Part shown: piece by piece, positions 5,194 through 63,407 of the stretch | Layout of the letters: each line of letters starts with the position of its first letter | How positions within the stretch are numbered: the first letter of the stretch is position 1 | Assembly (NCBI GenBank): GCA_965178125.1 | Contig: OZ237776.1 | Span: forward strand, 124,001 to 188,000 | Origin: Bilabrum cf. latius | Lineage: Eukaryota | Length of the DNA: 64,000 bases | Direction: 5' to 3' | Translations under genes and position numbers: made by a program | The notes under the pieces: generated by a model | Seen by the model: the letters and a program-made list of their open reading frames with translations, nothing else | What the model was told of the DNA's origin: nothing | Databases searched by the model: none

Positions 5194-6344
5194 TACAGAA
5201 TACTCAGCACTTTTGATGTATCTGGAAAGCTTGTGCTCCGCTCGTTCGGTCGATGTACTTCGAGAACAGCACGGGTAGTTGATACTCGTTCGCTACTGAT
5301 GAAAAGGGCACTGACGCCTTGTTGATAAGTTATGTGCAGCGATACTTCTGCGATGAAAACCGGTCAAGTAATGAGCTGCAAAAGAGAGAGAAGGTGCGCC
5401 CGCGTGGAATACACGGCCGTTGGTTGCGGATGCACCGCGCACTGCAAGCAGACACAGCAGCTACCAACAAGCTAGAAATCCAGAATAAATGCAGCTACTG
5501 CAACAAATACTTGACGCATGTGCACTGAGTGCCAGCAGCGAACACCAGAGGCAGCCGGCCGCTTTGCGCGGACCTTGGGGTGGTCACGCTGTTGGCCGAC
5601 ATGCTGCTGGTAGCGACCTATTCCACAGTACCTAGAATAGACGCTTTATAGTTTCATAAATTCACTGTTGCCTTTGGTCAAAGACCCATGCGAGGCCACC
5701 AAACAGCTGGTAGGTCGACCGGCACGCAGCCTAGAATACATCCAACCTCTTGCAATTGCTAAGCAGTTCATCGTGTCCTACTGGCCGTTTATATGCAAAC
5801 GTCAACTTACACTGCAGACTCTATGATATTTCCTACCAAATAGCGAGGATCAAGCCCCAGGTATTGCCGTGCGTTGGGCAATGAAACTGTCGCGACTGTC
5901 AGTGCCCAACCGTTGGTCGCAGATGCTTCTGTGTGACGAGTGAGGAGCTCGGTGGACGGTCCGCACGGTGGACCAGCATGCATGCAGTATGTATAGCTGT
6001 TTCGTGATGATGCGATCCCGTACAACAGTTGAATGAAAGTGCAATGTGTATGCTGCGCTGCCTGGGAAACTTAGTCGCAGCATGAGCAGACAATCGCAGT
6101 ACAGGCGGCGCCACAAGCCTGCAGTATCGCAGCCGAGCACGCACCTCACCATAGCTGGGTAGCTTGGACCTGGCTTGTGTTTGTATACCGTAAGTTTGGA
6201 TAGGCTACTGCATTGTCATGCCAGTGGCGTTGCCATGCCTTCACCGTGACACCGTGCATCGGGTCGGTCCTGTCGCCCCTTCTCTCCTTCGTACGCAAAG
6301 GGTTGCTTGGTGCTAGTAGGGGGAAATAAGTTTAATATATCTGC

Positions 6345-6917
6345 TTAGATCCAGCCGAAGGCCCCATAACCCGCAGCCAACAGCCATGCACCAGCCGCTC
6401 CAAGCACCCCACAGAAACCCAGAATCGGTCCGCTTGCCATGCCTGTCAATGCGAGCTCTACAGCCTGAATCGCTGCACCGCTCACAGCAATCCGCCAGCC
6501 GACGCAACACAATTGATGAGACTCGGGAGTCCCCGTATAGGCCCACCTGACGAGCATCTCGCAGTTGTGATTTACCACGCTATAGTGCTGTGCGGCCTTG
6601 CCTTTCTCGGTCCTGCCATGCATTTCCTTCCGGACCCGTCGAACGGCTTCCTCGGGGGAGTAGGCCTAGTTCTAGTTCGCTATGACGCGCACTTCGAGCT
6701 CCCGCTGGCTGTGAGCCCTGTACTGGCCCAAGCTCTCCTCAATTATGATTCCGTTACGCTGGAGGCTGAGTACGGTATTCGATTCAGCGTCGTATATGCC
6801 CCAGTGGTCCATCACCAAGATGCAGCCAAAGTTGAACGAGTAAACCAAGGCGCTCCCATGGGCCGGTGGTGCTTCATTGCCGGCGCTGCGTTGCTGTCGG
6901 GCGACGTTGTTTCCCAT
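6345..6917 (-). CDS. LRAT/PLAAT (HRASLS-like, permuted NlpC/P60) acyltransferase/phospholipase, 190 aa with TAG read-through
   Basis: HWGIYD His box, PEEAVRRV, YSVVNHNCEMLVRWAYTG (NCEHF-like catalytic Cys), C-terminal hydrophobic segment. Two in-frame TAGs (6672, 6666) lie between the His and Cys motifs; ends TAA. Confidence 0.85.
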
Positions 6918-16925: not shown

Positions 16926-19900
16926 ATGCCAAGCACTAGACGGTCGGCAAGACTGAATTCTAAATCATAGCCATTATCGCCCGCTCGAACGGGAGATGAA
17001 GTGACCAATGGTCAAGCTGTTGACCAGGAGAGGGCAAATGAAGATCTTGCTGATGCAGCCACAGAAGATGGTGGGCCAAATATCGGACTTGCACCGGCCA
17101 GCACTGAATCACGTGCGGCTAGTTCAAGCAGTGGAGCTGTACTTGACAAGGATACTTCGTAGGCGCAGCAAGCGAAGGCACTGGATTCTCGAGCTGGCAG
17201 TAAGCGCAGTCGAGCTGATCTGGAAACGACAGGTGTCCCAGGGACAGATCCGGACTCAGCTAAAGTTCCAACAACAAGCGAAAATGCCAGTATTGGCGAA
17301 TTGGAGGGTATGAGCCCCGCGACCGCATCCGAGTCTGCGACAGACCCTCGGAGCATGTCAAGCACAAGCGCAGGCGAGCAGCCCACACCGCTGCAGCAGA
17401 CCTACGACAACCCATCTGACGGTGACGTACCAGGTCTGGAGCCAAGTCCAACTGTTGCTGAAAGCAAAGATCCAGCCCCTGAAACGCCCGACCAGAGCCC
17501 AGACGCGAAGCGACGGAGGCTTGATACCGGTCCTGCGGAACCAATCGGAGAGGCGCCGCGCGATGCCAGTGCCACCCCGATGACTGAAGCGAGCACATCG
17601 TAGGGGCCCCATCTCACGAACTGGCTCCCTCCCGCAGAGCTATGCCGCTGGCCGGTCAACAGCGCCCCGGGTGCATATGCATCGTCGCCATCGTCGTCAT
17701 CGTCGTCTCCGTCGTCTCCGTCATCGTCGTCACCCTCATTGCCCACTGCAGGGTCCCAGGAAGCGCCTGCGCAAGCACCGATGGAAACGGGCGGTGCCGC
17801 GGGGACTGATGGCAACCGCGGATCCACTCATCACACCTCTACCGGGGTCGTTCTGCCTCGGCTTCCCGCTACCGCCGACGAAGCCGGTCTGCCGGAGGAG
17901 CTCTTCCAGAGGCTTCCCGGTGTGACGATTGAAGGTGTGACGAGTGCGGGCATGCCGGCGGTGGCCGTGTTCGCCGCAACTTCGGCCCAGAGGCACGCAG
18001 CGACCGCCGTTGCCATGGCCGTGTCAGCACGCGCCGCAGTGCGCTGCACCGTGATGCCGGCGGCCGGCCGGTCATGGCACGAGCTGGCCCTGGGTGCCTG
18101 GCGCCTGGGCTGCAGGGCCGCACTCGTCATCGATGAGGGGTGCTGCCGTGGGGAACGCAGTGGGCCCGGCGGTAGTGTATCGAAGGGAAGCACCGCCATG
18201 GGTGTGACGAGTGAAGGCGGGTCGGTGGTGGGTGTTGGAGTAGGGTTGCTATCGGTTCTGGCAGGCGGGCTGGCTCCTACTGCGCAAGGCAGCAAGCAGC
18301 CTCCGCCCATGGGAAGAGGAGCAGGAGCGGGATCGGGATCACAACCCGGCGAAGACATGCAGGAAGTTTCTGAGGACATGCAGGAAGGACAAGGTGCATT
18401 GCACAGGGGTGTAGTTCGCACCAAGGCGGGAGGAGGAGAAGTGATGGTATCTGCTTCGGGGGATCCGATCGGATTCATCGATGCCTCACCTGATGCAAGT
18501 GACGAGGATGAAGATGAGGATGATAGTGACAGTCGAGAAGGTGATGATAAGGGTGATGAAGACGAGGATGAAGGTGAAAAAGGGAATAAGAAGGAGAACG
18601 AGAACGAGAAGGACGGTGCAACTGGCAGCGGCAGCAGCGCGGGAGCAGCAGCAGGCCAGGGCGACGAGCCGATGCCCTCCCCTTCTTCCCCCTAGAGCGG
18701 CGCATCGTCGGCACATGCACATGCACCAGCACGGCCACCCGCAGCGCGGCCCCGCTCGCTGCCCACGCCTGCAGGCCTGGAGCAGCTGGCCGCAGGGCAC
18801 TTCCTGTCCCCCGCGGAAGCCATCGGGGCGGTGCGCATGCAGGAGGCCTGGCTGAGGAACTGCCTTGGGGGTGGTGTGACGAGTGATGGTGTGGAGGAGG
18901 GCAGTGTGACGAGCGCAACCGCGGGTGCCTCCGCCATCGCGTATCCTGCGACTGATGCGGCTCTGGCTGTGGCTGGCGTGCCGGCTGCACCTGTTGCTGG
19001 TGGGTCATCCGAGGATGTGACGAGTGACTTTGGTCCGTATGGTGGGTGGCTGCAAGGGGCGGTAGCGGAACGAGTCGTTGCTCCGGGAATCGATCCCGGG
19101 TCGTGGACCCTGGTTGGGGTGGTGGGCAGCAGCAGCAGCAGCAGCAGCAGTTCTTCCATCGGTGGGTCGGGGCCCCAGAGTCGGGGGAGCGGCAGCGGCC
19201 TGAGAAGGAGAGAACCCCACGACGATGCTGACGGTGAGGAGGAGAAAGTGGAAGACGATGGAGATGGTGTGACGAGTGAGGGCAAGGTGCCGAGGGCGTT
19301 TGGCGCAAGGAGCAGCGGAAGCCTGGGAGCTGGGGCCGGGTCTGACGAGGACGATGACGAGGGCGAGGAGGAGGGTGAGGACGGTGCTGATGGTGACGGT
19401 GGCGATATCGAGTCGGGGAAGGCTGGAAAAGGGGGGAACACATGCGAGAATGAGAAGGACGAGGGAACAATCGGCCCGTCAGGATCCCCAGCAGCAGCAA
19501 CAGCCAGCGGCTCAACTAGGACTGGTGCCGTTGCCGGTGCCGATGCTAAGCGAGGTGGAGCTCAGACGAGCAGGAGGAAGAGCAGAAGCAGGACGAGGAC
19601 TAAGCGAGACAGCAGCCATGGGGCACATGCAGGATAGGCGGGAGGCAAGTATGACATCGATGCCATCATGGCAAGGGCAGCTGCAGCCATCAAGGGCACC
19701 CCTGCTCCTGCCCCTGCCCCTGGCCATGCCCCTGCTCCTGCTCCTGCACCAACACCAGGAGCGGCAGCAGCCATTGGCGTCGTTTCTAAACCCGCCGCTG
19801 CTGCTGACACAGCTGCACTCGATGTGGCCAAACCTGCCGCTGATGGGAACGTGGCACCACAGTCTGGATCTGGATCTGGATCTGGATCTGGATCTGGATC

Positions 19901-20535: not shown

Positions 20536-23500
20536 ATGCTGAAGTAGGCAGGGTTGCAAGAACGAAATTTGGAGCAAGCCATTCAATGTGACCAAGGAAG
20601 CGAGCTACGGATAGGTGGTTCCGTACGGCAGCAACATTGCGCGGCGCCCGATGCGGTCCGTTTGCGAAGATGGGACATTCATGTACATTCACAGCAATCT
20701 AGGAAAGTAACGCTAACACTGATTACTTTGTTCTATCTTTCGCTCACATCGCATGCAGGCAAAGCAAAACGCGGCCCCGACATTTGAGGAATGGACAGGA
20801 GCAGCAGAAAAAAGATCACAGCAAGCCCGGATAGAACGAGCAACCCAGCTTCGCGAACTCAAGCACCAGCGGAAGTTGAGAATTCAATAGCAGAAAATCG
20901 TATCCGTGGCGCTGGATGCTGCCAAACCGCATCTTTGGGCAGCATCTGAGCTTATCGATTCTCTGTTCGATGCTCATCGAGAATCAGTGCAGCAAGCAGA
21001 GAGAGATGGCAACGCCAACAGGTAGATTGCACCTCTCATCCCCTGGAATGAAATTGGCAGGCGCTTGGCCTCTGCGGAGGCTGCTGCTGTCCGAGCCGGA
21101 GAGCTGGCCGCAAGGAGAGCTGCCGAGCACTGCCACGGCGAAGCAGGTGCTCGGGCCTCGCAGGAGGCGAGCAGGGCCATCCGAGCGGCGGTCCACGGAG
21201 CCAACCTGCGACAGCGCTGGAAGGACTGGGCTGTTGCAACTGGCGTGACAATGGAGGGCGTGCCGGTGCGACGAGTGGACCGAGCGCCCGACGGCGGCAG
21301 CATGGCAGTTGCTTTGGGACTGTTAGAAGAGGAGGAGGCAAGGGAGGGGGGGTCAGAGGTGGCAGCAAAGGCAGCTGCAGACGCGGGCGATGCTCCAATG
21401 GGTGCAGCGCATGGTGGTGCAGCGCTGGACACCGGATTCGTGGTGCCATCCGTCCGGCACACCGCCGCCGCCGCGCCCGTTGCAGCGGTACACGCTGCAT
21501 CCACCGGTGGATTGGGTGGCCTGCAGGCCCCGGCACTGACCCCTCGAGAGGCCGCCATGAACCGCCTCTTCTTCAAGGAGCTGAAGCGGGCCTGGGCGCA
21601 GGGCAGGCGAGCCGCGAAGGGACACCTCGATGCGCTGGAGCAGCCGCAGCAGGGACAGGGGCAGCAGCAGCAGCAGCAGAATCCGGGTCAGGAGCAGCTG
21701 GGACCAGCAGCCGCCACCAGGAAGGCAGCGGGCCCAGCCGGGCCTCGTACTACCGGTGCTGCATCGGGGTCAGGAGATTCGGAGGGTGGAGTGGAGGACC
21801 CGGAGTCGGTTGCAGCGAACCTCGCAGAACGTTCTCTATCCGAGGCGAGAGATCTGGTGCGCCGCGGGCTACTGGAGCGCAAGCGCTCGCGGCGGCGAGA
21901 GAAGGAGGACAAAAAGCACGAGGCAGAGACGCAGTTTCGGTCCCAAGTCCGGCGCAAAGACCTTGCGGAGGTTCCGCTGCGCGGCGCCGCGGCCGCTGCA
22001 GGTCTCGCGACCGAGCGCGCGCGGCGCCAATTACGCCGGTCCGTTGGTTCCGCAGGGCTGTCCTACGTGGGCGCTGGTCATCGGAAGGCGGTTCCAGATT
22101 GGAAGGTTCCGCAATCGATTGCGCGGCGCCCACTCGGCATTGGGTTTGGGGAGGACGGCAAGCCGATGGGAACCGCCGCGCTTTCCGGTTCCGCACAGAC
22201 TCGAACAGCGCCCACCTCCACCGTCACCCCATTCGATCGGAGCACGGTGCCTCACGCCGCTCGATTGGATCCCACGGGATCGAGCGTTCCCGCTCGGGGC
22301 ATCTCCGCGACGGATCGGAGAACCTTCCCGGCAACGTCCAGCGGGGCGCTGGGACTCCTGCGAGGGGCCTCGGAAGTGCACGCTACTTTGACGCAGGGCG
22401 AGGCGTTCGACGCCCGTGACGCCACGGCGCCCGCCTGGAAAACCGGAAGTGCCGACGGCGGGGCTCTGGAGCCGCAAGCCGGATCCGACCTGCAGGTGTC
22501 CGTTGGGTTGCGGAGCGGGATGCTGGCCGCCGCGGCGGAGGGTAAAGAGGGGAAGCAATCCAGGGAACAAGAGGGGGGACTGAGGTACGCATCCTGGGTG
22601 GAGTCGGCCGAGGTCGCCGAGGATTCGCGGCGCCAGTTCCGCAGACTGGACGCGCCGCTGCTGTGCTCCAGCGCCGGCTGGCGAGCGGCAGCCGCCGAGT
22701 CGTTAAAATGCGCGGCGCCCGGTTCCGCAAGTGACTGGCTGGAGTGGGCCACGTAGGGGCTGCGGGCGTCCTCCGGTCTAGAATCAGGCGAAGGCTCCGA
22801 GTCAACTACGGTTGAGAACGGGGATGGGGATATGGAGGGTGGCTCATCGGACCGTGATGCGCAACTGCAGCAGCAGCAGCAGCAGCAGCAGCAGCACCAG
22901 GCATGGCTGGAGAGTCTTGCGAGGAGCAGCAGTAGAGAGGACTCGGAATCGCTAAGGAAGGCGTTGCTGGGCGAGTGGAACGCGGCGGGTGGTCTGTTGC
23001 GCGGTGCCGGTTCCGCAGAACGGGCGGCGCTGGGCAGTGCACTCCGGCGATGCAGGTACTGGACGGGCAGGGCGCTGGATTTAAGGACATAGGTGGCAAA
23101 ACTTAAAGCGGAAGAGGAAGATAGAGAAAGAAGGGATGGAACGTCCGGCAAAGGTGTCCAGATAAGTCCCACCAGCGACTCAGGCAGTGTGACGAGGGAC
23201 TAGGGCAAGGGCGAGGGCAAGCGCGGGTCACCATGCAGCCTCACTGGGGAGCAGCTCGCCGAGGCCGAGAAGGAGGCTGACAGAGCAGCCGGGGAGGTGC
23301 ACCGGCACCGCAATGCAGTGCAGGTTGCGTTTCTCTCGCTGGAGAGTGCTACAGATAGGGGCCATGGGATCGGATCGGGGTCCGGGCCCGCATCCACCGG
23401 TGGGCTGCACGGCGCCGTCCTGCAAGCCGCACGGCTAGTTCGAGAAAGTGGCATGCTAGTTGCCATCAAGGGAGCTGGCTAGACAGCAGGTGGTGCAAGG

Positions 23501-29500: not shown

Positions 29501-30087
29501 CAGCGAGGGACTGGGTAAACGCGGCTCTGATGATAGGCGACGGTCCTTCTTCTGGTGTGACGAGTGCGGTCCCGGGCGCAAGAGCCGGAGCGTTAGATCG
29601 TCTTGAAAGCGCGTGTGGCGGCTTGTCCTGGCGCCGCGCATACTGCGGAACCTCTCCAAGGTGCGTGGTGACGAATCTGCGGCCGGGCGAGCTGGTCTTG
29701 TTCCGGGTCGTCACCCGGGGCGTGCTGGAGTGCGGACACAGGAGCAGCCCCTGCGGAACTTCGGCGCCGCGCGAGTGGCTCGGCGAAGGACTGGGCGCTC
29801 TGCAGCAGCGGCAGCAGCAGCAGCAGGGGCAGAGGAAGTGCGATCAGCCAGACGGGGCGCGGCTGGGTGAGGAGCGAGGAGAAGAGAAGGCAGATGCGGA
29901 TGGCCGGGGCGCGCAAGTGATTGCGGGAGTGGGGCTGCGTTTTGCTGCTTCTGCTGCTGCTGGGTCTTCTGCAGACAGAGGCGCGAACAGCAACAGACCA
30001 GTGGACAGAACCGGCATTGTCGTGAGCTCATCGATGCCAGTGCCTCGCTTGGTGGCCTGCAGCACGGCATCTGTGCATTTCGCTTGA
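20536..30087 (+). CDS. Giant (~3100 aa) protein with multiple fibronectin type III repeats and two WW-like domains; predicted introns 20707-20758 and 23718-23941; start uncertain
   Basis: FN3 motifs (YEGRFPSCVLSGLAPGRRYAYRIR, VYRGTGSECVVEGLQPFVRYAFRL, YCGTSPRCVVTNLRPGELVLFRV); WW-like AWYPVYDPREGQQRFFFFQPSSGVSVWDP and RWILVWYPERKQAFAFDQVSKAAHWDLP. About 15 in-frame TAGs and no in-frame TAA/TGA in the exons; ends TGA. Confidence 0.8.
23718..23941 (+). other. Spliceosomal intron (224 nt, phase 1)
   Basis: GTGAGA donor, T-rich tract and TGCGCAG acceptor; removal restores the frame (GDHVN-L-ADDVEW) and removes the TGA at 23852. Confidence 0.75.
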
Positions 30088-36213: not shown

Positions 36214-36349
36214 GTGGGTCGAGTGGTATGCGCGGCATGATTGCGGTATCTTGAGGCGATGTCGGCCGTGTAGGCTTTTCTCTGGGCAGTGGATGCCGGT
36301 ATCCGTTAGCTGCGGAGCCGTTGTCAGCAGATTGAAAACACCAAGACTC

Positions 36350-43947: not shown

Positions 43948-46900
43948 ATGCGGACAATCGCTGCATACATAGCGGTTTTCGCAGCCTTGGCTGTCAATTC
44001 GTACGGCGAATTGTCAACTTCGCCAGCTCAAGAAGCTACCAAGCCAGCCGTTGGCGTACCAGGTCTTTTCGCGCACGTGTCCCCCAACCTAGAGGCAGAG
44101 ACCTTCTTTCGGAACGATGTTTAGACTAATATCGTATTCGCTCCCTTTCAACAACAAACTACGGCTTTAGATACCGCAGAACAGGACGAAACCGATTCGC
44201 CGCACAGTCGGTTTCACCTTGGTTTTGACAAGGATACCCTTAAGAAGCTTCTAGACGCCGCTCTTGCGCGCCAAGGTGCGGTGGAATACTCCGTTAAGGG
44301 TAGCATGCGAGCATGGCCTGCAGGTACGACTTCGAACGAGGTGCTGGAGCACCTAGACGCGGGTGGAGCGATCGTCGTGCATGTCGTCGACGCGGATCCA
44401 TTTCTCGGAAATGTGAGACACCTCGCCCGGGCCACCTTCGGGATGCCGGTATCATCCAATCTTTACGTCGGTGGTCCAGGCTCCGTGGCCCTGAACCCGC
44501 ACACGGACCGCTGGGACACTGTGATCACGCAGCTGATTGGAAGCAAGCGCTGGACCGTTTGCGTCCCTCTGCCCGATCTGAGCGCGCAAAAGTCGCAGGC
44601 CGAGCGCGCCGAGATCGCCGAGGCACGCAAGAACCAACAAGAAGGATGCACGCAGTACGGCGGATCCTCGTGGAACGAGACGACCGGCATTCCGGGCATG
44701 GAGTGCGAGCAGATCTTGACCGAGCAGGGCGGTTTCCTCTACATGCCCAAGGGGGTGATCCATGCCGCCGTCGAGGCGTCCGGCTCGGGTCTATCAGCGC
44801 ATCTTACCATCGGATTAGAACGAACAAACCTTCAGTGGATGGACCTCGAAGGTGCCATCATCGATGCAGCAGGCTCCACCGCGGGAGACGACGAAACCGC
44901 TTCCGGCGGCGAGTCTCCCAATGGGCAGCTTCATGTGACGAGTGCAGTGCTTCGCGAGGCAGTCCGACGGGCCAGCGAAGGGGAGGAGGGGATCCAGCTG
45001 CGGTCTCTGCTGCCCATGTGGGACCTTGCCAAGGTGAAGAGAGCCGCTGTGAGAGGGGACATGTCAGCTGTTCAGGCCGCGCTGGCGGGCACGAAGCCCA
45101 GCACCAAGGGCAATGGTGTGACGAGTGATGATCGGAGTGTTCTGTCAGGCCTGATGCAGCAGCACGTACAGGTGCTCTCTCACATCGAGAGCGAAGCCTT
45201 GAAGCTCGGCAGGCAGCTCGTTTCCCGCACCGAGTTCAAGACGACCGCTCACATCGCCTCCTATCAGCAGCTGACCGACTCGCACAAGGCCGTGGAGCAG
45301 ACGATCCGTGCACTGATCCATCGACTGAAGGACCCGATGGCAGTTGCCGCTGGGATCCGCAGGTTCTTCGCCACGATGCACACCCGCGCACGGGCTTCAA
45401 CATCATCCTCGTCTTCACCATCCAGTGCCGCAGCATCAACTGCTTCGCTCAGGTCTTCCCCCCGGTCCAGCATCGTCCACAAGCCCGGTCCCATCAGCCC
45501 GTACGAAGTGATGCAGCATGAAAATGTGCCTGCAGCCACGGCCGTGCACATCGCCGAGGAGACGAGCAGCCTGGGTCGGGCACGGCGCCTCTCGTCCACC
45601 TGTGCCAGCACGTGTGGGACAGCCAGGTCCGTCTGCAACGGTCTCTGCCAGCTCGAGCCGAAGGCATGCGGGTGTGACGGTGCGCCGTGCTTTGCGGGAT
45701 GTGATGATGGCTGCACGGCTGGGTGCGACGGCGGATGTACCACCAGCTGTGACGGCACCTGCGTCTCTGGTTGTGACAGCGCCGGCGTGTGCACCAGCAA
45801 CTGTGACGGGAACTGCTTGGGTGGTTGCGACAAGGGCTGCATCGGTGGGTGTGACAAGTGGGGAGTAAAGTCGTGTGACAGCTCCTGCGTGCGGTCATGC
45901 GACAACAGGTGCAGCACCTCGTGTGACGCGGGCTGCGCGAACGCCGGAAGCTGTGATGACGCGTGCACCACCGATTGCGACGGCGGCTGCACGCTGGCGT
46001 GTGACGACAATTGCGTGGGAGGGTGTGACGAGTAGTGTACGACCGCGTGTGACGAGTCCTGCGGGGACTGTGAGGGAGCCTGCGAGATCCAGTACGACGA
46101 TTGCCTGGCGACGTGCAACGACATGGCTGACATCTGGGAGAGGGTGGAGGGATTCGGAGTCGACGTTGCCGAGCTAGCCGTTGAGCTGGCGGAACTGGTC
46201 CTGTCCTGCATCTCACTGCACGGAAATTGGCCCTCGCTGAACGACCTCAAATCGATCGGAAAGTGCACAGGGTAGGCATTTGCAGAGCAGGCGGCCCCCG
46301 CCCCTTACCAACTTGCCAAAGCGCTACAGGACACGATTGAAGGCGCCAACACGCAGGGGCTGATCGATCTGCAGACTATATTGACGCAGCAATACATCAC
46401 AAAGGAGAGCTGCACCATGATTTGGGACGGAATCGAGCGGATCGCACCCATCTTGGAGTGCTGGGTTGACTCGTTGCAGGCTCTGCCAGCGGTAGGAGTG
46501 TGCTTCCTGGGAGGGTGGCAATTCCCAGCATTCACCATGGGAGTGGGCGTTACGTACACGTCAGTCATCGAGTAGTACCAGTTTGACATGGGGCTTTGGA
46601 TCGACAAACGCGGCGACAGGGGCTGCTACATTGGGCTTGGGAAGGGCGTCGCGCTCGCCCTGCCGTCCGTCGAAGCTGGATTCGGCACAGCAATCATGGA
46701 GAGCAAGACAGCCATATGTGGCGACGGGTACGAAGTGGACGTTTCCGGGACATTTCGCGGGGTCGAGCTCGAGGCTTCGATGGTGTTCCAGACCGACTAC
46801 GAGTTTGGTGATATGCCGATCGGGGTTTCAGGCTAGGGTGCGGTAGACAGTGAGGAGCTTGGAGGTTCTATTGCAGTTCGCAGATCCATCGCCAACATGG

Positions 46901-50336: not shown

Positions 50337-52701
50337 ATGGGGTCATGTGGCTCGTCCTTGGCAAATATAAAACCGAACGGAGATGCGCATGCTATCGAGC
50401 ATGATGAGCCAGATCCCCGTTCAGCGATTACAGCAAGTCCATTCAAGCGACCAGATTCTTCTAGTTCCAGTCGCCAAAGTAAGCTTTTTCGTTATCCATC
50501 TTTCATGAGCTGACCAAACTTTCATGTGCATATAGCTTGCTCCCTGCTTGTCGTAATTTGAAAGTTGTTCATTGCGTGAAACTGCATTGCTTGAGTGCAA
50601 GGTTTGTCGTCAGACGTCTTCGCTTGAATCCTGCAATCACACCCTGCGGTAGGAAGCAAGCAATTGAGCCCATTTTATAAAGCCTTTTTCAAATGCCAGC
50701 GTGTTTGACTGCGCTTGGTTGCACTGAGCAGCTGAAGTCGTTTGCACCTGGCGACACCCCTCCCGAAAAATAGCATCAAATTGACTCATTCACTCGATGA
50801 AAGTGATTGTGCCCACCGCAGAGCTTGTGGACGAATCAGCTGCGAGTAGTGGACGGGGAACAAAGTATCAGGTCGCGTCTCCCGGTGGCGTTCAGATTCG
50901 AACGGCATGGCATATCGCAACCGAGCACTTCCCTCCTGCCAGTGGCGATAGAAAGGGCAAAAGCGCAGGCAACGAAGCCCAGTGCGCATTAAACGTAAAG
51001 CATATCAGCGGCAGGAACGCGGGATCCCAAGATATCGACTAGACCGCCCCTGATCTCGATGCAAGCAAAAGGCAGCTCTGGAAGGCCACCTCAGCGCAAA
51101 GTCGCCGAGGCCGTCTTGACGGCAATAGCGACAACAGCATGGATGCCAATGGCGTCGCCGATGGATCTGAATCAGGCGCGAGTAGAACAGAACCGGCGAG
51201 CAGCTCCTGCCATCACTCGTCTCATCACGGTAATTCGCACATGGACCGAGCGAGCGCCAGGACGTCGACCACCGCCACCGCGACGAGCACCCCCTACAAG
51301 GACCACTCGTCACACTCCGTGGGAAGGGCGCAAGCCCACGGGCCGGCCAGCAATCGCAGCCGGTGGCGTGACCTTAGTGCTGGGGGGTTGAGCGAGAGCC
51401 ACATCACCGGGGCGAGCGCTTGCAATCCTGAGGTTGCAACCGGATCCAGCGCGGGAGGCGGTGGTGTGCGACGGGAACACATCCAATAGCCTCAAGGCGG
51501 TGAAGATCGGATCATCTTGGGCACCCGTAGCAGGGGCGGGGCGGCACCAGACGGTGTCTGGAACGACGAACCTTCCCTGGATGTTCGCGAAGGATCGGCG
51601 GAGTTCGCTGAGGCGTCCGCACGGGCTCTCTCGCGCACGGGCAGCGAGTCCGTAGGGGCCGGCGACGATGCCCGAGGCGGAGAGCGTGCCACTCGTCACA
51701 CGGGCCGGGGCCTCTCCTCCCAGCAGCTCGTCTCCGGTGAGTCGCTGCACGTGTCGGGCGGGCGCACGCTGCACCCACGCGCTTCCAAGCAATCGCTTTA
51801 GAGGCTTTCCAGCAGGTATTCCGATTCCGAGTTCCAGGGGCCCTCCTCGGGTAGCCTGGTTGGGATCCTGGCATCCAGAGGTGGGGGTGGTGGTGGGGGG
51901 GGTGCTGGTGCTGGCTTCTCCCGCTCCTCTCTGCCTGGATCGGTTGGTTAGGGTGGTGAGGGTGGTGAAGGCGGCGAGGCAGCCGGGGGCGGCAGCTGGC
52001 AAAGCTTCGGACTCGGGTCGTTCGTCCAGGATGCGGCGAGCGAAAGTGCTGGTGATGGCGCTCCAGGCCCATCGGGTGCACGGAGGGGCGGATCCGGAGC
52101 ATCAAATGCAACCGGCGGTGACAATTTGCACGGTGCGGTCTCGCCGAGGCGGATTGCCGCCGGGGCAGGTGTGACGAGCAGCGATCGAAACTTGGTGCAG
52201 GTGGAGGGACCCAGCGTGGAATCGTCGCTTGAGTCGTCCGATTCGTCCATTGAGGGGCTCCTGTCGCCGGTCTACATGGAGCAGCCCGGCGGTGCAGGAG
52301 GGCTTGGGCAGCGCGATGGTGTGACGAGTGCTTCCCGGCACAGCGCGTGGTCGAGTGACGGCAGCGAGTCTGAGCAGCCCAAAACCGATTCCGAGTCGGG
52401 TCACGATCCTCTGGAGACACCGAGCGACTCCTGGGATGGTGGTGCGGCTGCCGGTGAAGGAGACAGGGAAAGCGGGGCAGGTGCGTCAGCCGCTGCAGCT
52501 GGTCAAGCGCTGCCTCACGGCGGTGCGAGCCACGGCAGTGGATCCGGAGCCGCAGCCAGAAGCAGCACCGGGCTGGTGCAGGCCCCTCCCGAGTGGGAGA
52601 TGGCTCCGATCGATGAGGCATCAAACAGCCGCAGCCGTACGGGTTCATCGACTGGTGGGTCTGGGAGAACTAGACGGAGCTCGCAGTCGGAGCAGCATTG
52701 A
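50337..52701 (+). CDS. Low-complexity Ser/Gly-rich protein with MGSCGS motif; predicted intron 50479-50821
   Basis: GTAAGC donor and CCGCAG acceptor in phase; TAGs at 51040, 51487, 51799 and 51949; ends TGA. Confidence 0.68.
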
Positions 52702-52878: not shown

Positions 52879-54493
52879 TCACCGCAGGCTATCCGCTGCC
52901 ACTGCGGTTCCAGGAACCGCTGGCTGCGCAGCTGCAGGGTCACACCCCCCTGACGATACCGAGTTCCCTTTCATCATAGACATGGACGAGCGCAGTCTGG
53001 CAGTCCACCGCTGAAGCGAACCACCTCCCTGTGTTGATCCACCGGCGTAGGCCGCACCCCTTCCCCTCCCCCCCCTGTCCACAACCGTTCGCGAGCCGGT
53101 TCCGCGGATCGGGCTGCCACTGGCAGCTGCTGCAGCCTGCAGGGAGCCGAGCGGCCGCAGCGGCAGCAGCTCCCCTGAGTGACCCCGAGAGTGATCATCA
53201 TCTGGGCCGCTTACGGATTGCCAACGGGGTCGCCTTGCCGTCGTCGATGGTTGGGTTGCTGCTGTCGATGAGTCGCCTTGGACCCTCCCACTCGTCACAC
53301 CATAGAAGGTTCGCACTGTCGCATCGAGCTGACTAGGGGTGCCAAAGTTGCTCCGCAGCAGTCCCGGTATCGACGCTTCGGATACTGATTGTACTGCCTA
53401 TCGCATCCCAACCCGTCTTTGAGGCGCTGTGTACAGCCGCGGCGGGCAGTCGCGGGGTGTATCATCGGCAGTAGGCAGGTGATCGTGTCTCCCTGGCTGC
53501 CTCGAATACCCCCTGGCCATGTGGCGGTCGCTTTCACTGCGAAACGATGATTCCCCGGTGTTGAACGAGGTGGCACTGCCTCGTTTAACACGCCCTGACG
53601 AGTGCAGAGGATCGGCCACGAGCTGGTCAGAAGCATCGCAAATTCGGCCCCCATAACTACCTGTGCTAGCCTTGCCGGCAGTACCAGCGGACCCGTGTTG
53701 CGGCGCATGTGATGCAGGCTACGATTCTAGGCAAGCATCGTGTCCCCGATTGCATCTCCCCGACGCCTGTGTCGCAGTCTGATCATGTTTCGAAGCAAAC
53801 TTTGGTAAGTGGCTGGCAGAGCCCTGGTGAGCCAGGCTTGTATCGCACCCTGAAATTGACTGCACGATGTGATGCGTTGCTTGACTAGTATTCCTGGCCT
53901 GTAGCTGGGAATCAATTATACCCTCCGCACCCTACGTGCCACTTCTGTTGCTGGCAGGTCCGCATTGATGTACTTCCACGCGAGAAGGGATGTGAGCACC
54001 AGACTCAACCAATCTGGCAGATGCTATTGTATCTGAAAATAACACGGATCCCTCGCCGAAGGGCTAGGTTCCATGTGCAGAGCCTGATGCTTCTGTCTGA
54101 TAGGGGTACGTCTGCGAGCTGGAGATGCCGACGCAACACGATTCATAGATGACAATGAGTTTGACCGCACGAAATATTTCGTCAGTTTAAGCCTCACGGT
54201 TGTGTACTGTACCGTTGATCCTGGTTCAATGCTTTCCTGGAACAGCTATGAAGCTAGCAGTGATCCACCGCATGCTGCTGCGGTAGTGTCTGTGCACTAG
54301 CACACATGAGGTACAAATAAGAATCAAGCACACTTGAATCATTGACGAGATTAACATCATTCATGCAGCCGCATAGAAACATAGTGGTGCGTCGGATGGA
54401 AGCAGAGCACTCACTGCCGGCTGGGTGTTTCAGCTGGAAGTCCACCAGCTCTCTGCTTTCTTCAATACCGACGGAGCTGCTTACACAACCCAT
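52879..54493 (-). CDS. Low-complexity protein with MGCVSS motif; intron(s) around 54110-54414 unresolved
   Basis: First exon followed by GTGAGT; frame open 54186-52879 across TAGs at 54064, 53932, 53719 and 53398; ends TGA. Confidence 0.52.
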
Positions 54494-54825: not shown

Positions 54826-56223
54826 TCAATGAATTGACTCCAACGGGTCAAGAGACCACTCTTCTGCGCTTGCGTATCCGTGCACGATCTACCCCCCTAC
54901 GTCGCTTGCGCCAGTGCCATCACTTTCACCATCTCGCTCCAATGGCACTGCTTCTCCCCCAAGGGACCTCGAAGAAGCACCGAGTGACCTGGTGCTCCAT
55001 GGCTTGGCCGGCCTTAAGTAAACACGCCTTATCGACCTTGCTCGCTCGCCTTGCTTTGGCTCTGCCCCCGCAGCAAGGCATCGGCCGGTGCAGCCGGGCA
55101 GACTAGGAGGATATGTGGCTGGGCTTGGCACCGGCACACCCTGCGACAGGGCTGGGCTTGGCACCGGCACACCCTGCGACAGCTAGTGGTGCTCTACACC
55201 GGTAGATGCGGCGGTGTCCCATGCATGGTCGCGCTCAGCAACGGCTGAACCGCTCTCAGCTGCGGCCATGGCACCCACCTGCTGCTCCACCTCCTATCCG
55301 CTGCCTAGCTGCTCCCGTGTGCGGGTAGTGGCCAAGCCATGCGTGCTGCCTACACCAAACGAAGAGCTGCTATGTTCCTACAAACTGATATTACTTCGCT
55401 CGTCACACCTGCTACGCGCGCCGGGATGGCCGCCATCGTGCGACCGCGTGCATGAGTGCTACTCGTGGCTAGCATGCGACCAAGAGCGGCGACCACCCCT
55501 CGCGTCTGGCTGAGCCATCGCCCCCGTGCCGTCAGTGGAAATACCAGACGTAACCTGCAATTGTTCAAGCTTTGTAGCCAATGATCTAGGTACAACGGTC
55601 TCGCGATGATTCACCCCCCGCGGCGTTGCAACGTACTTGCGGGCAGCAGCACGTGGTGTCAACGGTCTCGCGATACCCGGTTCTAATCGTCGCGTGCCGG
55701 GCAACCCGCTGATTGCACCTAAACTGGGCAAATAGTCAGTGTGGTGGAATGCAGGGTCCAGATTTGGGACTTTGACCTGATTGGCGACGCATTCCTGCGC
55801 GCATCTTGACGAGCGCTTGGTAATTTTCTTCTGTGCCCAGTTTCCTCGAACTGATATGTTGGACCAACTTCGAATTCCAGAGCGCTTAACATACTATCAA
55901 ACATAGCATCCGTCTCACACTGATCTTCTGGTGCCCACCGCTGCAGGAATTTCCACAGCTTAAGCGCTACTAGGAACACTTGCCTGGATCGACCTCTGCA
56001 ACAATAACGCATGAATGAAAGAGACATCTTCGTTGGACAACATCCTTAAATACAACTGTGCGTGTGCATGATCTCTCAACTGTATGTATGCCTTACGTTT
56101 CCTTGATATTCCCACACGATCACAGGTGCATGTGCCTCGATGCGGTGATACGCGAACCTCTGTGTTGGAATGCGCTGCAGCTACTGCATGAACGGCAGGC
56201 ATACTACTTGTCCCGCAGCCCAT
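54826..56223 (-). CDS. Low-complexity protein with MGCGTS motif; intron(s) around 55894-56096
   Basis: GTAAGG donor after the first exon; frame open 55893-54826 across TAGs at 55459, 55378, 55294, 55183 and 54889; ends TGA. Contains a 33-bp duplication at ~55117-55182. Confidence 0.52.
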
Positions 56224-58637: not shown

Positions 58638-60908
58638 ATGGATTCGTATCGAGCTGAAGGCGATCAGCAGCAACATGGCAGCATTGGTCCGAAAAAGCGC
58701 AAAGATGCAACTGGTGCGGTAGCTAGTGCCTTCAATCCAGATAAAGCAAGTTGGAAAGAAGTCTTATAGCTGTCAGAACAGTTGAAGGATAACCTTGCGC
58801 ACGCAGACAGACGGCAAAGCGAACTTACCGACGGTGAAATAGAATCGGCTGCACGGCGACTGCGGGAGGCCAGGCGAGCAATTAAAGGACTCTAGCTGGC
58901 TATTGATGCTCAGCTATATGGCGATCATAGCAAAGAGAACGTGCAATGGCGCATCGCGCGGACGGTACCACCAGATGCCACTGATGGTGGAAGCGCACAC
59001 GGTTCTCGGTTCTCGATTGCACATAAAGCCGACGCGTCGGAGATTAGTAGATCTGCGAACTCACAAGTACCAGCTAGTGCATCCTCGAGTCACGAGGGGA
59101 ACATGCAGCCCAGACCGATTGAAATTGGCCGCCGCGGCCATTGCCGACCGGCATTAACTCCGACTCAAAAGACGTCCACTGGAAAGGGAGCCATGCTGCT
59201 AAAGGTTCCGGAACCAGGCCCAGGCTCTACGTCCGGTGCTTCTGGTTCTTCAAAGACATCCGACACGCTGAGTGCGTCTTTAGTTGGTTCGAGTTCACAG
59301 TACGGTGGGACGCTGAGCAGTCGATCCGGCATTTCAGCGGGTGCTGTGGCCGAGATGAGAGCGCAAGGGGATGCAAGTGCCGACGGGACGTCCGAGTCGT
59401 CCGAGCGCCGCAGCGGGCATTCCAGTCACCGGCCAACCAGCTCGAAGGGCAGCTTTGATGATAGTCGGAAGCACGACAATCGATCCAGTGCGGCTTTGCG
59501 GCAGTCGGGAGCTGTTGAAGCAGCATCCGAAATGCCCACACACAGCGGGGCCACCAGAGCCCGCAAGAGAGAGCGCGGGCGGCGCACTGACCATACCGAT
59601 GCCGCGGACCTCGCGGGATCAGCGACTGCCTCGGATTCGCCTGCCAGGTCCCCTGGGCAGCATAGCCAAGGCGGGCGCGACATGAGCTCGCGAAGCAGCG
59701 GGAGCATTCGGCGGAGCGGCGGCAGCAGCCGCGGGAGCGCCAGCCAAACCGGAAGTGGGCGGGGGAACACGCCTTCACTGGCGGCTGATGACGGCTCCGT
59801 GGACCGGGCGGAAGGTGAAGGGAACGAGGAGGGCGGGAGGCATGACACGGGAAGCAGCCGATCGGCAGACTCCAGCCGCGCACTGCCGAGTGTGACGAGT
59901 GCTGGACGCTCCGGGGGTGGAGCAGGTGGAGCAGGAGGAGGAGGGCAGAGGAGGAGAAGAACCAGGACCAGGACCAGGCAGCACCGCAAGAGAAGGCGAC
60001 ACGACAGCGTGATTCGCGAGCTGCAGCCGGGCCAACCGGGTGCATCGCACGGTGGAGGATATCTGCGAACCAGCAGCAGGTGGTCCGGAGACGAAAGGTC
60101 AGGTGCGTTGCACGGTAGTGCAGGTGTCAGGGTCTCGGGTGCAGTCTGGAGCGAACAGCAGGGCCTGATGGTCGGTTTGCCAGAAAACACCTCCCGGGAC
60201 AGCAGCGACCCATTGGCTCGATTCACCGGACTGCCACACCGGGCAAGGGTACAGGAGCAGGATCGCTCGAACTCGATTGGCAGCATCGCACCATCACGTG
60301 CCACCGGCTATCTGCCCTCGGGTACCTCGCTCATTTTGATTCCGGATGGTCAAGGCGCAGCACCCCCTGGAGTACCTCAGCGGGGAATGTGGAGCGGACC
60401 CATCCTGACGATTGGCACTGGAAACGGAAACGCCTCGGGCTCGGGCTCGGGCTCGCAGCTGCAGGCAGGTCTGGGAATAGGAGCAGCAGGTGCGGCGGGG
60501 ACACTGAGCAGCTGCGACGATGGCGCTCTCACCCCCATGTCCCAGCCCCAGTAGCAGCCTGTGTGCCCCGGGGAAACCGGAACTGCAGGGCATGGTGGCA
60601 TAAGTAACCATTCCTTCGTACTGCAACGGCCAAGGGAACGAGGCAGCGAGTCCAGCTCGAGCAGCGACAACACGCTGGTAAGGGAGGCGAGAGCAGCGGC
60701 AGCGCAGGAAGCACATGGCGCCGGGCTCAGCCCATCGAGGGACCTAGCATTCGCTGGCAGTGGAGTGTGCCTGCATCCGAGGCACGTGGATGACGCTGCA
60801 GATGCTCAGGGTTGGTGCGAGGATGGTGCACAGGGGATCGGGCAAGCCGCTGCGCCCATGTCTTCAGGAGGATTGGGCGGCTAGGGCGCACCGGACCAGC
60901 TGCACTGA
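58638..60908 (+). CDS. Hypothetical protein with N-terminal helical/coiled-coil segment and Ser/Gly-rich disordered body; true start may be upstream (e.g. 58476)
   Basis: One frame across TAGs at 58767, 58893, 60552 (CAG TAG CAG) and 60882; ends TGA. Confidence 0.65.
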
Positions 60909-61124
60909 GGTGAGTGCGGTTGCAACCGGTAGCATTCGGATCTGAGGGAACGCGTGACTCAAGATCATCCTGGGGGATTGTGTGCTGCATGCGGCAAGAC
61001 CTGCCCTCCCCTGGGGAGAGTTCCATTTCTTCTCACCTTCGGGCAAATGCCAGGAAAGTTCATTGTATTGTAATTCAAGGCATTCAATGTACATGCGCTT
61101 GATGCAGGTGTTCCAATCCGATCT

Positions 61125-63407
61125 TCACACGCACTCGTCACACTCAAACACAGTGCTAGTTTTCGGCGTAGCCCTCGCCCTCGCCTACGTCGAGCCCCTT
61201 GCCCCTGCCCCTGCCCCTGCCCCTGCCCCTGCCCCTGCCCCTGCCCCTGCCCCTGCCCCTGCCCCTGCCCCTGCCCCTGCCCCTGCCCCTGCCCCTGCCC
61301 CTGCCCCTGCCTCTGCCTCTGCCCCTGCCACAAACTTGACGCCACCGCGGCCCCTTGCTTCCAAGCTCATGTGCCAGCCCACTCGCATTGCAAGCGCAGA
61401 TTCCTGACTGCGGGTCAGTTGAGCCTTCGCATGACGAGTCCAACTCGGAGCCCGATGCAAGCCTCTGCCAGCGCCACTGCCAGTGCCACTGGACTCTCCC
61501 CAGGCAGCCCCGACCCCGCTGTGCTGGACCTGGCCAGCACTGCTCGCGTCCCTGCCTTCCCGCGATTCCACGTAGCTCAACGCTCGCTCGAGCAGCCACT
61601 GGCTAGTGCTGCTCACGAGGTGCGCGGCGCAGGTTCCGCTCGTGCCGAATGTGTAGGCCTCTCCTTCCGTGCCCATCGTGCCACTCTCGGGCGCGAAGCT
61701 TTCCTCCGTCTCGCCTATAGTAGCACGGTGTTCAACATGTTCCCGTGCAGCTTTTTCATATTCCTGCCGCGTTGAAACGATCGATGCCATGTCATTGGCA
61801 GTGCCAGTTGCTTCGGCACCAGGATGCTCTCTGGCATACCAACTTCCTTGCGCTGCGCTGCCCCACGACTGATCATGGTCTCGAGCCATGTTTTGGACGA
61901 TTCTAGTCGTGTGAAGATGCACCTACTGCGATACAGTGGACCCCTCTGCTTCTATGTCAATTCGACTGCAAGCAGGACCGTTGATGTCATCCGGATCGAT
62001 CGGCAACACTTCTTGAGGAGCAGCACTGCCACTAAGTTTGGTGAAAGGGTAATGATGAGCCTCGTCCTACAGCAATGTTGTTGCGACTTCACCCCTCGGC
62101 AATTCAATACCACTGCTGCACTCAACTGCAAGCAGGTCGGATGACTATGGTGATTTTAGGTCTGAGAGGTCGTTGCTGGGCAACCAGACACAACCAGACT
62201 CCCCAAAACTACCTATTGCATCTGTGTGCCTGCGGCATCGCTTTGAGTGTGCCATAGATCGTTTCAAAGCAATTCTGCTGGCCGATTGCGATCTACTGCG
62301 TAGATTCGGCGCCGAGTTTGCGACTGAATCTCCGCAATCAATCGGTTCAAGGGATAACCAGCGCGACCCAGATACTGCGTTTGATTCTTGACGCGCGTTG
62401 TTATTGTCCAAGTCGTGTGGGGAATGCCGTGGAAGATCCTATCTGGCGGCTGGCAGCTGCACTTGCTTGCTCGGTTTGTCGGGGGTTTTCTCCGGCTTTG
62501 AACCATATGAAGGGATGTTTATAGCCCTACCAGTACCTAGAGCGACTTGCGGAGACGATGTAGATAAAACTCCCTACCCCTGATGTTGGGGACGGAATAC
62601 AGTGCTACTGGGTTGCAGTGTCTCGCACCATTGTTGACTTGAACCCTCTCGGGTCCCGCCTCCAAAAATGACGTGGTTTCCAATGGTATAATCTCGCACT
62701 GCCCAGTTGGAGTGGTCCGACGTAGCAGAGAGCACAACATCGCTAGCGACTCCTCCTCGATGATTTACTTGTTTCTCACTGGCAGGGCAGTCACTCGACG
62801 CAGTTCCATGTCTACTCCCATTATTGGATTGTTGGCTACTATGTACCACGCAATAGACACGACGAACTGCGGTGTCGCCAATGAATTCGATTACAAATGA
62901 AGATAGTGCAGATCCGGACAGCATACGTGTCCATTCAATTACATGGTTTCCAGTCGAAAGCATGCCCTTGCCGCCATTAAGAAACTTAAAACGAGACCGT
63001 GTTGTAGTAACTGACTATGCACCTTTCTAAAGCGGCCACATGAACAGGCAAGATAGCTGTCGTCGCGCCAACCGCACTAACAGTTAGCCAGGCGATTGCG
63101 CACTAGCGGGCAACTGCCGGCAATGACAAGATTCCAGTGACTAGTTTGCGAAATTGACCTTCCAGTGCTTTCAAATCCCAACACAATTCTTACTTTTTGG
63201 CCGATTGCAGCTTGATCTCCATGACGATCGGCGCCAGGGCCGGCTACTCGGCAGTATTCCGCCACCCGCGTCGCTACCCTTCGGCAGTGATGCCTCAGTG
63301 TCGGCTTCTGCAGCGTGATGCGCATGCACCCGTGCAGCAGATCGAAACGATGCATTGCGTTTATCATGCTCCCCGTCACCAGACTGCTGGCCTAGGCAAT
63401 TTCCCAT
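61125..63407 (-). CDS. Low-complexity protein with MGNCLG motif; intron starting at 63193
   Basis: First exon followed by GTAAGA; frame open ~62963-61125 across TAGs at 62574, 62439, 62145, 62067, 61923 and 61185; ends TGA. Confidence 0.6.
61194..61329. repeat. (GCCCCT)n hexamer microsatellite, ~22 units, encoding Ala-Gly on the minus strand; same unit also at ~35378-35419 (inverted) and ~35718-35770
   Basis: Directly visible. Confidence 0.92.

Follow-up and report, generated by a model that had tools for sequence, protein, structure and literature searches.

A 12-bp DNA word dispersed through coding sequence in contig OZ237776.1

Genes and genetic code of the window

The window analysed here is a 64,000-nucleotide stretch of contig OZ237776.1 (positions 124,001 to 188,000; GenBank assembly GCA_965178125.1, Bilabrum cf. 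latius). Long predicted genes tile it, and dispersed through them, in several frames and on both strands, is a 12-mer, GTGTGACGAGTG, whose abundance, coding context and possible origin we describe. An initial annotation made from the letters alone had listed 27 exact copies in the window; we recovered all of them, 19 on the plus strand and 8 on the minus strand, at a density of one exact copy per 2.4 kb.

With the standard stops, few long open reading frames (ORFs) are found in the window; taking TAG as a sense codon resolves it into tiled ORFs of 2087, 1861, 1570, 1132 and 1043 amino acids (aa). ORFs of 2708, 1784, 1722 and 1429 aa in related metagenome contigs, described below, likewise require TAG as sense. 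Reading TGA or TAA as sense did not lengthen the top ORFs. Across the window and the related contigs, the longest ORFs hold between 5 and 30 in-frame TAG codons (5-8 in the long ORFs of the window) and not one in-frame TAA, which is found at ORF ends only. This distribution, TAG inside long ORFs and TAA confined to their ends, argues for TAG as sense and for TAA and TGA as stops; the nuclear code thus appears to be a rare one, with UAG as a sense codon and UAA and UGA as terminators. The residue inserted at TAG is likely Gln. TAG contexts are frequently Gln-rich, and TAG lies opposite Gln at three of the six positions that align to solved homologues (two in alpha-L-iduronidase, one in the PTS2 receptor), the remaining three aligning with Leu, Val and Lys. 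A tRNA scan of the window and 18 related loci returned no tRNA gene of any kind. The TAG-sense signature covers the whole window and recurs in L002, L014, L019, L023, L037, L039, L061, L099, L113 and L119, the 2708-aa ORF lying in L099. The 20 stop-to-stop ORFs of at least 300 aa predicted in the window under this putative code serve as gene models throughout.

The gene content is eukaryotic. In the window it comprises FG-GAP repeats, a JmjC domain and a weak GT61 match, and the related contigs encode SMC-like, kinesin-light-chain-type TPR, PTS2-receptor-like and iduronidase-like proteins. Long low-complexity tracts are present, and the genes appear to be uninterrupted by introns. As a lead only, the Atlas cluster nearest to the JmjC domain is 89% Eukaryota, with Haptophyta the commonest group; a JmjC homologue search over a length range of 800-2547 aa gave one distant match, and protein P0003 retrieved no relatives from viral or metagenome contigs. 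Together, the host looks like a GC-rich, intron-poor microbial eukaryote. Among the papers found, UAG-only reassignment is described in a rhizarian, a fornicate and some ciliates, none obviously matching a GC-rich host. Standard gene callers will break up the genes of a TAG-sense host of this kind.

An exact 12-bp unit of DNA

We compared the window with 100 dinucleotide-preserving shuffles, none of which contained GTGTGACGAGTG, against 27 copies in the real sequence. Near-copies are in excess as well, and outnumber the roughly ten counted initially: 15 carry one mismatch and 13 carry two, where 30 third-order Markov simulations predict 0.5 and 5.6, respectively. The 30 bases on either side bear no relation from copy to copy. 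In a position matrix built from all 42 exact and one-mismatch copies, information reaches background at -1 and +14, with a weak G at position 0 and a scarcity of T at +13. Counting through ORFs gave 73 exact, 24 one-mismatch, 20 two-mismatch and 69 three-mismatch copies, a ratio of exact to one-mismatch copies of 3 to 1; counts are back at background level by three mismatches, as would be expected if a discrete family had decayed from a single master sequence. The core TGACGA has GTG on both sides in 88 of its 221 occurrences, and no other triplet pair around it forms a family, each other matching triplet being found at most twice. GTGTGACGAGTG is not palindromic, its reverse complement being unlike itself. 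The TGACG half-site that had suggested a bZIP-like binding site is present, but inspection of the sequence found no dyad symmetry and no full TGACGTCA-type site. An Rfam scan placed no family near the word.

Could the repetition reflect chance, low complexity, or an assembly or library artefact? Simple repeats are abundant in the window. Moreover, when contigs were scanned for two copies of GTGTGACGAGTG within 30 bases, most of the stretches returned (at least 120 metagenomic, 26 prokaryotic and 2 viral) were unrelated tandem satellites, the metagenomic ones with periods of 9, 11, 22, 33, 41 and others. Against this stand the absence of copies from all shuffles and the unique flanks. Tandem Repeats Finder detected a single tandem among the 27 exact copies, a 30-bp two-copy array at 26321/26351, and unique flanks with only one tandem pair indicate that the word in the window is real and not a tandem repeat. 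Within 17000-36999, 17 of the 18 exact copies are also spanned by contigs from runs of three further studies, without one differing letter among the pieces listed, and independent JGI assemblies contain dispersed copies of their own. The contigs of the four runs compared are DNA-like and identical to the window, and they reveal no splicing, transcript ends or strand; no RNA run was listed for the region. An artefactual or chance origin is contradicted by these observations, and we give it next to no weight.

The word extends beyond this contig. Among the metagenome contigs listed by the close-pair scan, 18 show the TAG-sense signature: one data set contributes 16, which total 97 kb at GC 0.53-0.60, and a second contributes two. 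These related contigs total 103 kb, do not overlap the window and carry further dispersed copies away from the pair by which they were found, so the motif is not confined to OZ237776.1. The prokaryotic and viral stretches hold local arrays of 2-7 copies only, and none has the TAG-sense signature. Three of these stretches (L145, L146 and L142) belong to the one contig read through, which is binned in a Metamycoplasmataceae metagenome-assembled genome, has 52-58% GC and is filled with a 15-bp satellite resembling the word; this contig looks mis-binned for a mycoplasma-type genome.

Tandem arrays of GTGTGACGAGTG differ in period with their setting. Outside long ORFs the periods are 14 and 17 bp; in ORFs that hold the word in a sense frame they are 15, 18, 21, 30 and 42 bp, all multiples of three; and two arrays that run antisense to a called ORF repeat every 22 and 41 bp. 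In the related contigs, themselves selected for pairs, short arrays seeded by GTGTGACGAGTG, with the whole word in every unit, occur at L104 3232-3294, L023 9861-9886, L002 1652-1708 and L091 888-1235. Of these, the arrays outside long ORFs repeat every 14 and 17 bp, and those within ORFs every 15 and 42 bp.

We next consider whether the repeated unit is the DNA or the peptide it encodes. The 20 gene models contain 25 VTS tripeptides, where amino-acid frequencies predict 5.4. Eighteen of the 25 are encoded by an identical nine bases, a codon set that codon usage predicts in about 1.5% of cases (0.46 x 0.28 x 0.12) and that includes AGT, a rare codon used for 12% of Ser. With these 18 set aside, seven VTS are left against the expected 5.4. 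All seven CDE tripeptides likewise share one codon set. Synonymous shuffling within each gene, which keeps both protein and codon usage, leaves 0.6 copies on average and never more than 4 in 300 shuffles, compared with 25 in the real ORFs, and shuffling codon order leaves 0.003. The repeated unit is therefore DNA, not the encoded peptide, as the initial annotation had proposed, and the enrichment does not vanish against a null that preserves amino acids and codons. Selection for a peptide motif, Gly-Val-Thr-Ser-Ala/Asp/Glu, for example as a modification site, with identity of the DNA as a by-product, would account for VTS being five times commoner than composition predicts and for the non-random residues beside VTS in that frame. 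It is contradicted by the shared codons and the small remainder, by the recurrence of the same 12 bases in four other frames and outside ORFs, and by the loss of enrichment under synonymous shuffling. We regard a selected peptide as very improbable.

Strand, frame and place within genes

Of the 42 window copies with at most one mismatch (Table 1), 33 are sense to an ORF, seven are antisense and two lie outside ORFs. The sense copies divide into 23 in the (G/S)VTS phase, nine in the CDE(C/W) phase and one in phase 0; the antisense copies comprise six exact and one variant, and so are not more decayed. The translations first assigned to the word, GVTS, CDE(C/W), TRHT and LVT, are correct, with HSSH to be added, all in ORFs that exist only with TAG as sense. 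One copy had been placed inside a SET domain. The copy itself stands, and the domain is doubtful: Pfam reports no family there at E ≤ 0.01, and the best SET match in the PDB has E = 0.41.

The word is oriented with the gene, whichever chromosome strand that gene is on, as illustrated by 53289, 55397 and 61132, minus-strand copies in minus-strand ORFs. Chi and KOPS are over-represented polar octamers whose orientation is tied to the replication strand. GTGTGACGAGTG shares with them over-representation and orientation, but its tie to the gene strand contradicts the Chi analogy that had been offered.

Pooling the window with the related contigs (167 kb), with local arrays collapsed and ORFs of at least 300 aa, yielded 57 sites. 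On the sense strand, 31 sites are in phase 1, six in phase 2 and none in phase 0; on the antisense strand, phases 0, 1 and 2 hold three, four and six. GTGTGACGAGTG thus occupies five of six frames, and the empty one is the sense frame that reads GTG-TGA. The overall pattern is of one favoured frame, one empty frame and four at about the same low level. Exact antisense copies, 19 in 122 kb of ORFs, are beyond chance. Near-cognates at 3-5 mismatches, taken as background, show a sense excess of only 1.5-1.9-fold, with phases 1 and 2 equal. A preference in the flanking bases (G or A before, C or A after) is limited to the VTS frame and gone in the others, which places it at the level of the peptide (Gly/Ser before, Ala/Asp/Glu after) and leaves a DNA unit of exactly 12 bp. 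Single copies in the metagenome loci that played no part in ascertainment are 13 sense (11 in phase 1, two in phase 2) and two antisense.

Such a sense bias could arise if the word acted as a signal at the level of mRNA or translation in the VTS frame, for instance by binding an RNA-binding protein, by pairing with a guide RNA or by causing a pause at domain boundaries. The 31 of 57 sites in sense phase 1, the 13-to-2 split of unascertained copies, the depletion outside ORFs quantified below and the tendency of copies towards protein linkers and tails would all fit. So would a second enriched word, CCAGGGAACA, which is found 18 times sense and twice antisense over all three frames. We nevertheless consider a signal of this kind unlikely. 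The other 26 of the 57 sites, exact antisense and non-ORF copies among them, lie outside that frame and would need another origin; antisense copies are no more decayed than sense copies; and many long genes carry no copy. No hairpin or other local RNA structure was found at GTGTGACGAGTG, where pairing probability is 0.597 against 0.603 in controls. A filter acting on the peptide would also explain the bias of CCAGGGAACA, whose antisense readings include Cys, Phe, Trp and Leu.

Copies are distributed very unevenly among genes: nine of the 20 gene models have no exact copy, and the ORF at 23824-30084 has nine. Within proteins, hydrophobicity near copies is modestly below the ORF average, both in the window (0.204 vs 0.238) and in the related loci (0.224 vs 0.260; p about 0.03 in each). 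The copy in the iduronidase-like protein falls in a 52-residue stretch left unaligned by HMMER, where the human enzyme has 8 residues. In the PTS2-receptor-like protein, one copy occupies the C-terminal tail and the other two sit just ahead of a WD repeat that could be aligned. For two window proteins, homologues of 44-60% identity allow three sites to be compared; the word is missing from the homologues at each, and at one of these sites, 45116, the copy falls within residues that are extra relative to the homologue P0004 (Table 1).

Two further roles were tried and rejected. As a signal for TAG read-through the word fails, since genes with 3-7 TAG codons carry no copy. As a tiny GT...AG intron it fails too, since the ORFs run open through it and the TGA frame is avoided.

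Downstream of the JmjC domain, at 45673-46060, lies a Cys-Asp repeat (C-D-x-x-C) that contains three look-alikes of the word (Table 1); a homologue of 44% identity from a different organism conserves this repeat. Twelve of its 16 Cys codons are TGT, although TGC makes up 71% of Cys codons overall. An attraction of this codon choice to GTGTGACGAGTG was considered and rejected; the repeat itself accounts for it.

Table 1. Window copies of GTGTGACGAGTG with at most one mismatch; ORFs are TAG-sense and of 150 aa or more
Positions	Strand	Copy	Setting and reading
5931..5942	+	exact	outside any ORF of at least 150 aa
11429..11440	-	exact	antisense in ORF 10318-11952(+), ALVTL; weak SET-like region
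17825..17836	-	1 mismatch	antisense in ORF 16917-20312(+)
17920..17931	+	1 mismatch	sense phase 1, GVTI; next copy 15 bp on
17935..17946	+	exact	sense phase 1, GVTSA
18202..18213	+	exact	sense phase 1, GVTSE
18874..18885	+	exact	sense phase 1, GVTSD
18904..18915	+	1 mismatch	synonymous AGC, SVTSA
19015..19026	+	1 mismatch	DVTSD
19267..19278	+	exact	sense phase 1, GVTSE
21266..21277	+	1 mismatch	sole sense phase-0 copy; mismatch turns in-frame TGA into CGA, VRRV
23187..23198	+	1 mismatch	SVTRD
24356..24367	+	exact	sense phase 1, CVTSD, ORF 23824-30084(+)
24968..24979	+	exact	GVTSA
26024..26035	+	exact	GVTSA
26321..26332	+	exact	GVTSA; unit 1 of 30-bp two-copy tandem
26351..26362	+	exact	GVTSA; unit 2 of 30-bp tandem
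26885..26896	+	exact	SVTSA; directly after weak FN3-like match
27216..27227	-	exact	antisense, STRHTA; 59%-identical homologue has QSRLHG, no gap at site
28661..28672	+	1 mismatch	GVASE
28907..28918	+	1 mismatch	TVTSV
29349..29360	-	exact	antisense, PTRHTA
29555..29566	+	exact	GVTSA
32001..32012	+	exact	sense phase 2, WCDEW, ORF 31063-33585(+)
32169..32180	+	exact	sense phase 2, QCDEC
32196..32207	+	1 mismatch	PCDAC
32555..32566	+	1 mismatch	synonymous ACC, GVTSD
33105..33116	+	exact	sense phase 2, QCDEC
33428..33439	-	exact	antisense, SLVTH
36958..36969	+	exact	outside any ORF of at least 150 aa
44933..44944	+	1 mismatch	HVTSA, JmjC protein; homologues have DTFL and SVLI, no gap at site
45116..45127	+	exact	GVTSD; within 15-residue stretch missing from homologue P0004
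45849..45860	+	1 mismatch, look-alike	CDKW, Cys-Asp repeat; peptide conserved in P0004; probably natural resemblance
46023..46034	+	1 mismatch, look-alike	CDE then TAG, Cys-Asp repeat
46047..46058	+	1 mismatch, look-alike	CDES, Cys-Asp repeat
51304..51315	-	exact	antisense in ORF 50785-52698(+), HSSH
51690..51701	-	exact	antisense, TRHT
52319..52330	+	exact	sense phase 1, GVTSA
53289..53300	-	exact	sense phase 1, minus-strand ORF 52882-54186, GVTSG
55397..55408	-	1 mismatch	sense phase 2, minus-strand ORF 54829-55896, CDER
59890..59901	+	exact	sense phase 1, SVTSA, ORF 58470-60905(+)
61132..61143	-	exact	sense phase 2, C-terminal end of minus-strand ORF 61128-63083, ECDECV then stop

Companion words and candidate origins

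A census of dispersed 10-mers over the same 167 kb ranked GTGTGACGAGTG first, its 10-mers occurring at 61-63 sites with observed/expected ratios of 100-190. Other words follow: the palindrome GGTTGCAACC (20 sites, observed/expected 90), CCAGGGAACA (21 sites, 41), a second palindrome, CCACCGGTGG (12 sites, 23), the GCGCGGCGCC family (about 20) and, at lower ratios, GGTGCATCGC and CTGCGGAACC. In the window, GGTTGCAACC is found at 1327, 3958, 24002, 29177, 31905, 32640, 51432 and 60918; CCACCGGTGG at 21501, 23394, 25604, 26786, 28293 and others; and GCGCGGCGCC at 18 sites between 7461 and 29763. Over the 167 kb, GCGCGGCGCC has no strand bias (19 sense to 15 antisense). Like GTGTGACGAGTG, these companion words have unique flanks and are located within ORFs, for the most part in genes that also carry GTGTGACGAGTG, and they are enriched in the related contigs too. 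No fixed spacing was found among them or to GTGTGACGAGTG, so no longer element joins them. Hence GTGTGACGAGTG heads a wider vocabulary of words in abundance, and the behaviour that these words share weakens explanations that depend on features of GTGTGACGAGTG alone, the bZIP half-site among them. Neither this shared behaviour nor the dependence of the coding frames on a TAG-sense code had figured in the initial annotation.

Hyper-abundant exact words such as HIP1, the uptake sequences and Chi are a bacterial phenomenon whose origin is still debated. The uptake sequences (USS of Pasteurellaceae, DUS of Neisseriaceae) are non-palindromic words of 9-12 bp, present about once per 1-2 kb; they lie in coding DNA in tolerated frames and are explained by molecular drive, not by a function in each gene. 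GTGTGACGAGTG is like them in length and density, in its use of five of the six frames and in its empty stop frame. USS and DUS rely on bacterial natural competence, whereas the gene content here is eukaryote-like, and natural competence is not known in eukaryotes. DUS also favour terminators and inverted pairs, whereas GTGTGACGAGTG is depleted outside ORFs. HIP1 is the highly iterated palindrome GCGATCGC of cyanobacteria (PMC4390886, PMC13756078). The likeness to it lies in a short exact word, enriched about a hundred-fold, placed inside genes in tolerated frames with DNA as the unit, and the host genome here has palindromic words of its own, GGTTGCAACC and CCACCGGTGG. GTGTGACGAGTG differs in being 12 bp long and non-palindromic, in lying in a eukaryotic nuclear genome, in its strong frame bias and in its concentration in particular low-complexity genes. 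The analogy with HIP1 and uptake sequences first drawn for this word holds for abundance and tolerated frames, and does not extend to the palindromic form of HIP1. In a literature search, with supplementary files outside its reach, 354 papers contained GTGTGACGAGTG or one of its 10-mers; the 20 listed did not treat it as a genomic signal, the word standing there in primers and the like. Nor did the search bring up a paper on words of the HIP1 type in nuclear genomes of eukaryotes. Here a 12-bp word in eukaryotic nuclear coding genes is enriched to a degree comparable with the bacterial words and is accompanied by others.

What process could have placed the word? Exact copies in antisense orientation and outside ORFs exceed chance, and near-cognates are too rare for point mutation to have supplied them, which together point to a frame-independent process that creates or copies the word. 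Our tentative preference, held at somewhat less than even confidence, is that GTGTGACGAGTG is a DNA word spread by copy-and-paste without regard to frame and then sieved by selection on the peptide it encodes. Repeated copying would have introduced the word into the nuclear genome of a GC-rich, intron-poor, TAG-sense microbial eukaryote through a sequence-specific process, either insertion or short-patch templated replacement, that is indifferent to strand and reading frame. Translation would then act as the filter. Copies in the sense frame reading GTG-TGA would be lethal, leaving that frame empty; frames that add Cys, His, Arg or hydrophobic residues would be thinned to similar low levels; and the Gly/Ser-Val-Thr-Ser-Ala/Asp/Glu frame would survive in loops, tails and low-complexity stretches. 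On these terms GTGTGACGAGTG would be a selfish or mutational micro-repeat, and neither a peptide motif nor a regulatory signal of individual genes; both the copying mechanism and the absence of function are inferred. The idea comes close to one of the possibilities raised by the initial annotation, a mutational or repair footprint.

Two known systems illustrate how such a filter may operate. Rickettsia palindromic elements are selfish DNAs of 100-150 bp, inserted in frame in genes, with clear presence or absence among orthologues. Like GTGTGACGAGTG, they are repeated DNA that persists in ORFs at tolerant surface parts of proteins; unlike them, GTGTGACGAGTG is 12 bp long and non-palindromic and shows no clean insertion or deletion at comparable sites. 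In Eimeria, CAG and telomere-like heptamer repeats are present in about half of genes, are translated and lie in disordered regions. The strand and frame bias of these coding repeats is governed by peptide tolerance, as proposed here. Those repeats are tandem and simple, whereas the copies in our window are single 12-mers with unique flanks and only one two-copy tandem.

Several observations weigh against copying followed by filtering. First, non-ORF DNA holds seven of the 57 pooled sites although it makes up 27% of the sequence (ORFs of at least 300 aa make up 73%). GC content is 61.6% in ORFs and 51.7% outside them, and the scarcity of non-ORF copies is not expected of neutral insertion unless the process favours GC-rich or transcribed DNA. 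Second, clean 12-bp presence or absence relative to homologues was seen at none of the comparable sites; the alignments at 27216 and at the variant 44933 are gapless at the site itself, with gaps close by; and the weak SET alignment is likewise without a gap at its copy. Third, flanking k-mers give no sign of target-site duplication beyond chance, matching at 0 of 56 sites for k=4 (0.27 expected) and at 4 of 56 for k=3 (1.5 expected). Fourth, no longer conserved element, terminal repeat or donor element was found around GTGTGACGAGTG. Finally, the 10-bp companion words are enriched in ORFs, where simple in-frame insertion is impossible for words of that length.

The first, second and last of these points favour a different account, the main rival, in which the words are a functional or driven DNA signal of the HIP1 or uptake-sequence kind and coding constraints merely set their place and frame. 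The words would be recognised on double-stranded DNA, for example by a four-finger zinc-finger array, which spans 12 bp, or by dimers in the case of the palindromes, and their abundance would be maintained by selection or biased conversion. The presence of several distinct enriched words in the lineage, two of them perfect palindromes, speaks for this account, as do the 10-bp words in ORFs, where simple insertion breaks the frame, the gapless homologue alignments at two sites and the scarcity of copies outside ORFs, in so far as it counts against copying and filtering. The window shares its top word with contigs from two metagenome data sets, exact copies are three times as numerous as one-mismatch copies, and the sense excess is partly predicted by the strand composition seen in near-cognates. 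On the other side, a maintained signal sits poorly with the uneven distribution among genes, with the depletion outside ORFs and with the lack of fixed spacing between copies or between words, and near-cognates (0.5 one-mismatch and 5.6 two-mismatch copies expected per window) are too rare for substitution or conversion alone to have produced the copies. We rate this account as possible but doubtful.

It is similarly conceivable, though we would not count on it, that GTGTGACGAGTG, GGTTGCAACC, CCACCGGTGG, GCGCGGCGCC, CCAGGGAACA and others form a eukaryotic counterpart of HIP1 and the uptake sequences, a vocabulary written and kept exact by dedicated copying or conversion machinery. One possibility for the writer is oligonucleotide- or RNA-templated repair, or reverse transcription. 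If true, this would be a new kind of molecular drive inside eukaryotic genes, in a lineage with UAG alone reassigned. Copying or conversion that writes words would constitute a source of protein insertions and a genome-wide sequence bias undescribed for eukaryotes; words that are bound or read would constitute a signal layer, so far unknown, overprinted on coding sequence. The frame pattern itself offers a natural experiment on tetrapeptide tolerance, with one lethal, one favoured and four thinned frames.

Repetition on other scales is also seen in the window. The minus-strand 1861-aa ORF with FG-GAP repeats (1-5583, TAG sense) contains two near-identical segments 2631 bp apart, in which word sites recur with identical flanks at 1327/3958, 1445/4076 and 1613/4244, indicating a recent internal or tandem duplication. 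The stretch 56521-57519 consists of about 22 repeats of a 45-bp unit, with 92% matches between them; several frames of this unit are open on either strand. Hexanucleotide arrays in ORFs (GGGGCA and its complement, and CAGGTG; 35353-35420, 35718-35769, 61194-61329 and 10973-11056) encode Gly-Ala or Ala-Pro runs. The interval 36343-36999, a G-rich, GA-repeat-rich non-ORF sequence in which every contig reads G for A at 36720, has a depth 10-20 times that of neighbouring bins in all four runs compared, and is probably repeated or low-complexity sequence common to other loci. Lastly, the region 24000-33900 was found in runs filed under four organism labels in four studies, and the contigs from three of them are identical where compared; several hosts may carry the organism as a cobiont or contaminant, or it may be an environmental species of wide distribution.

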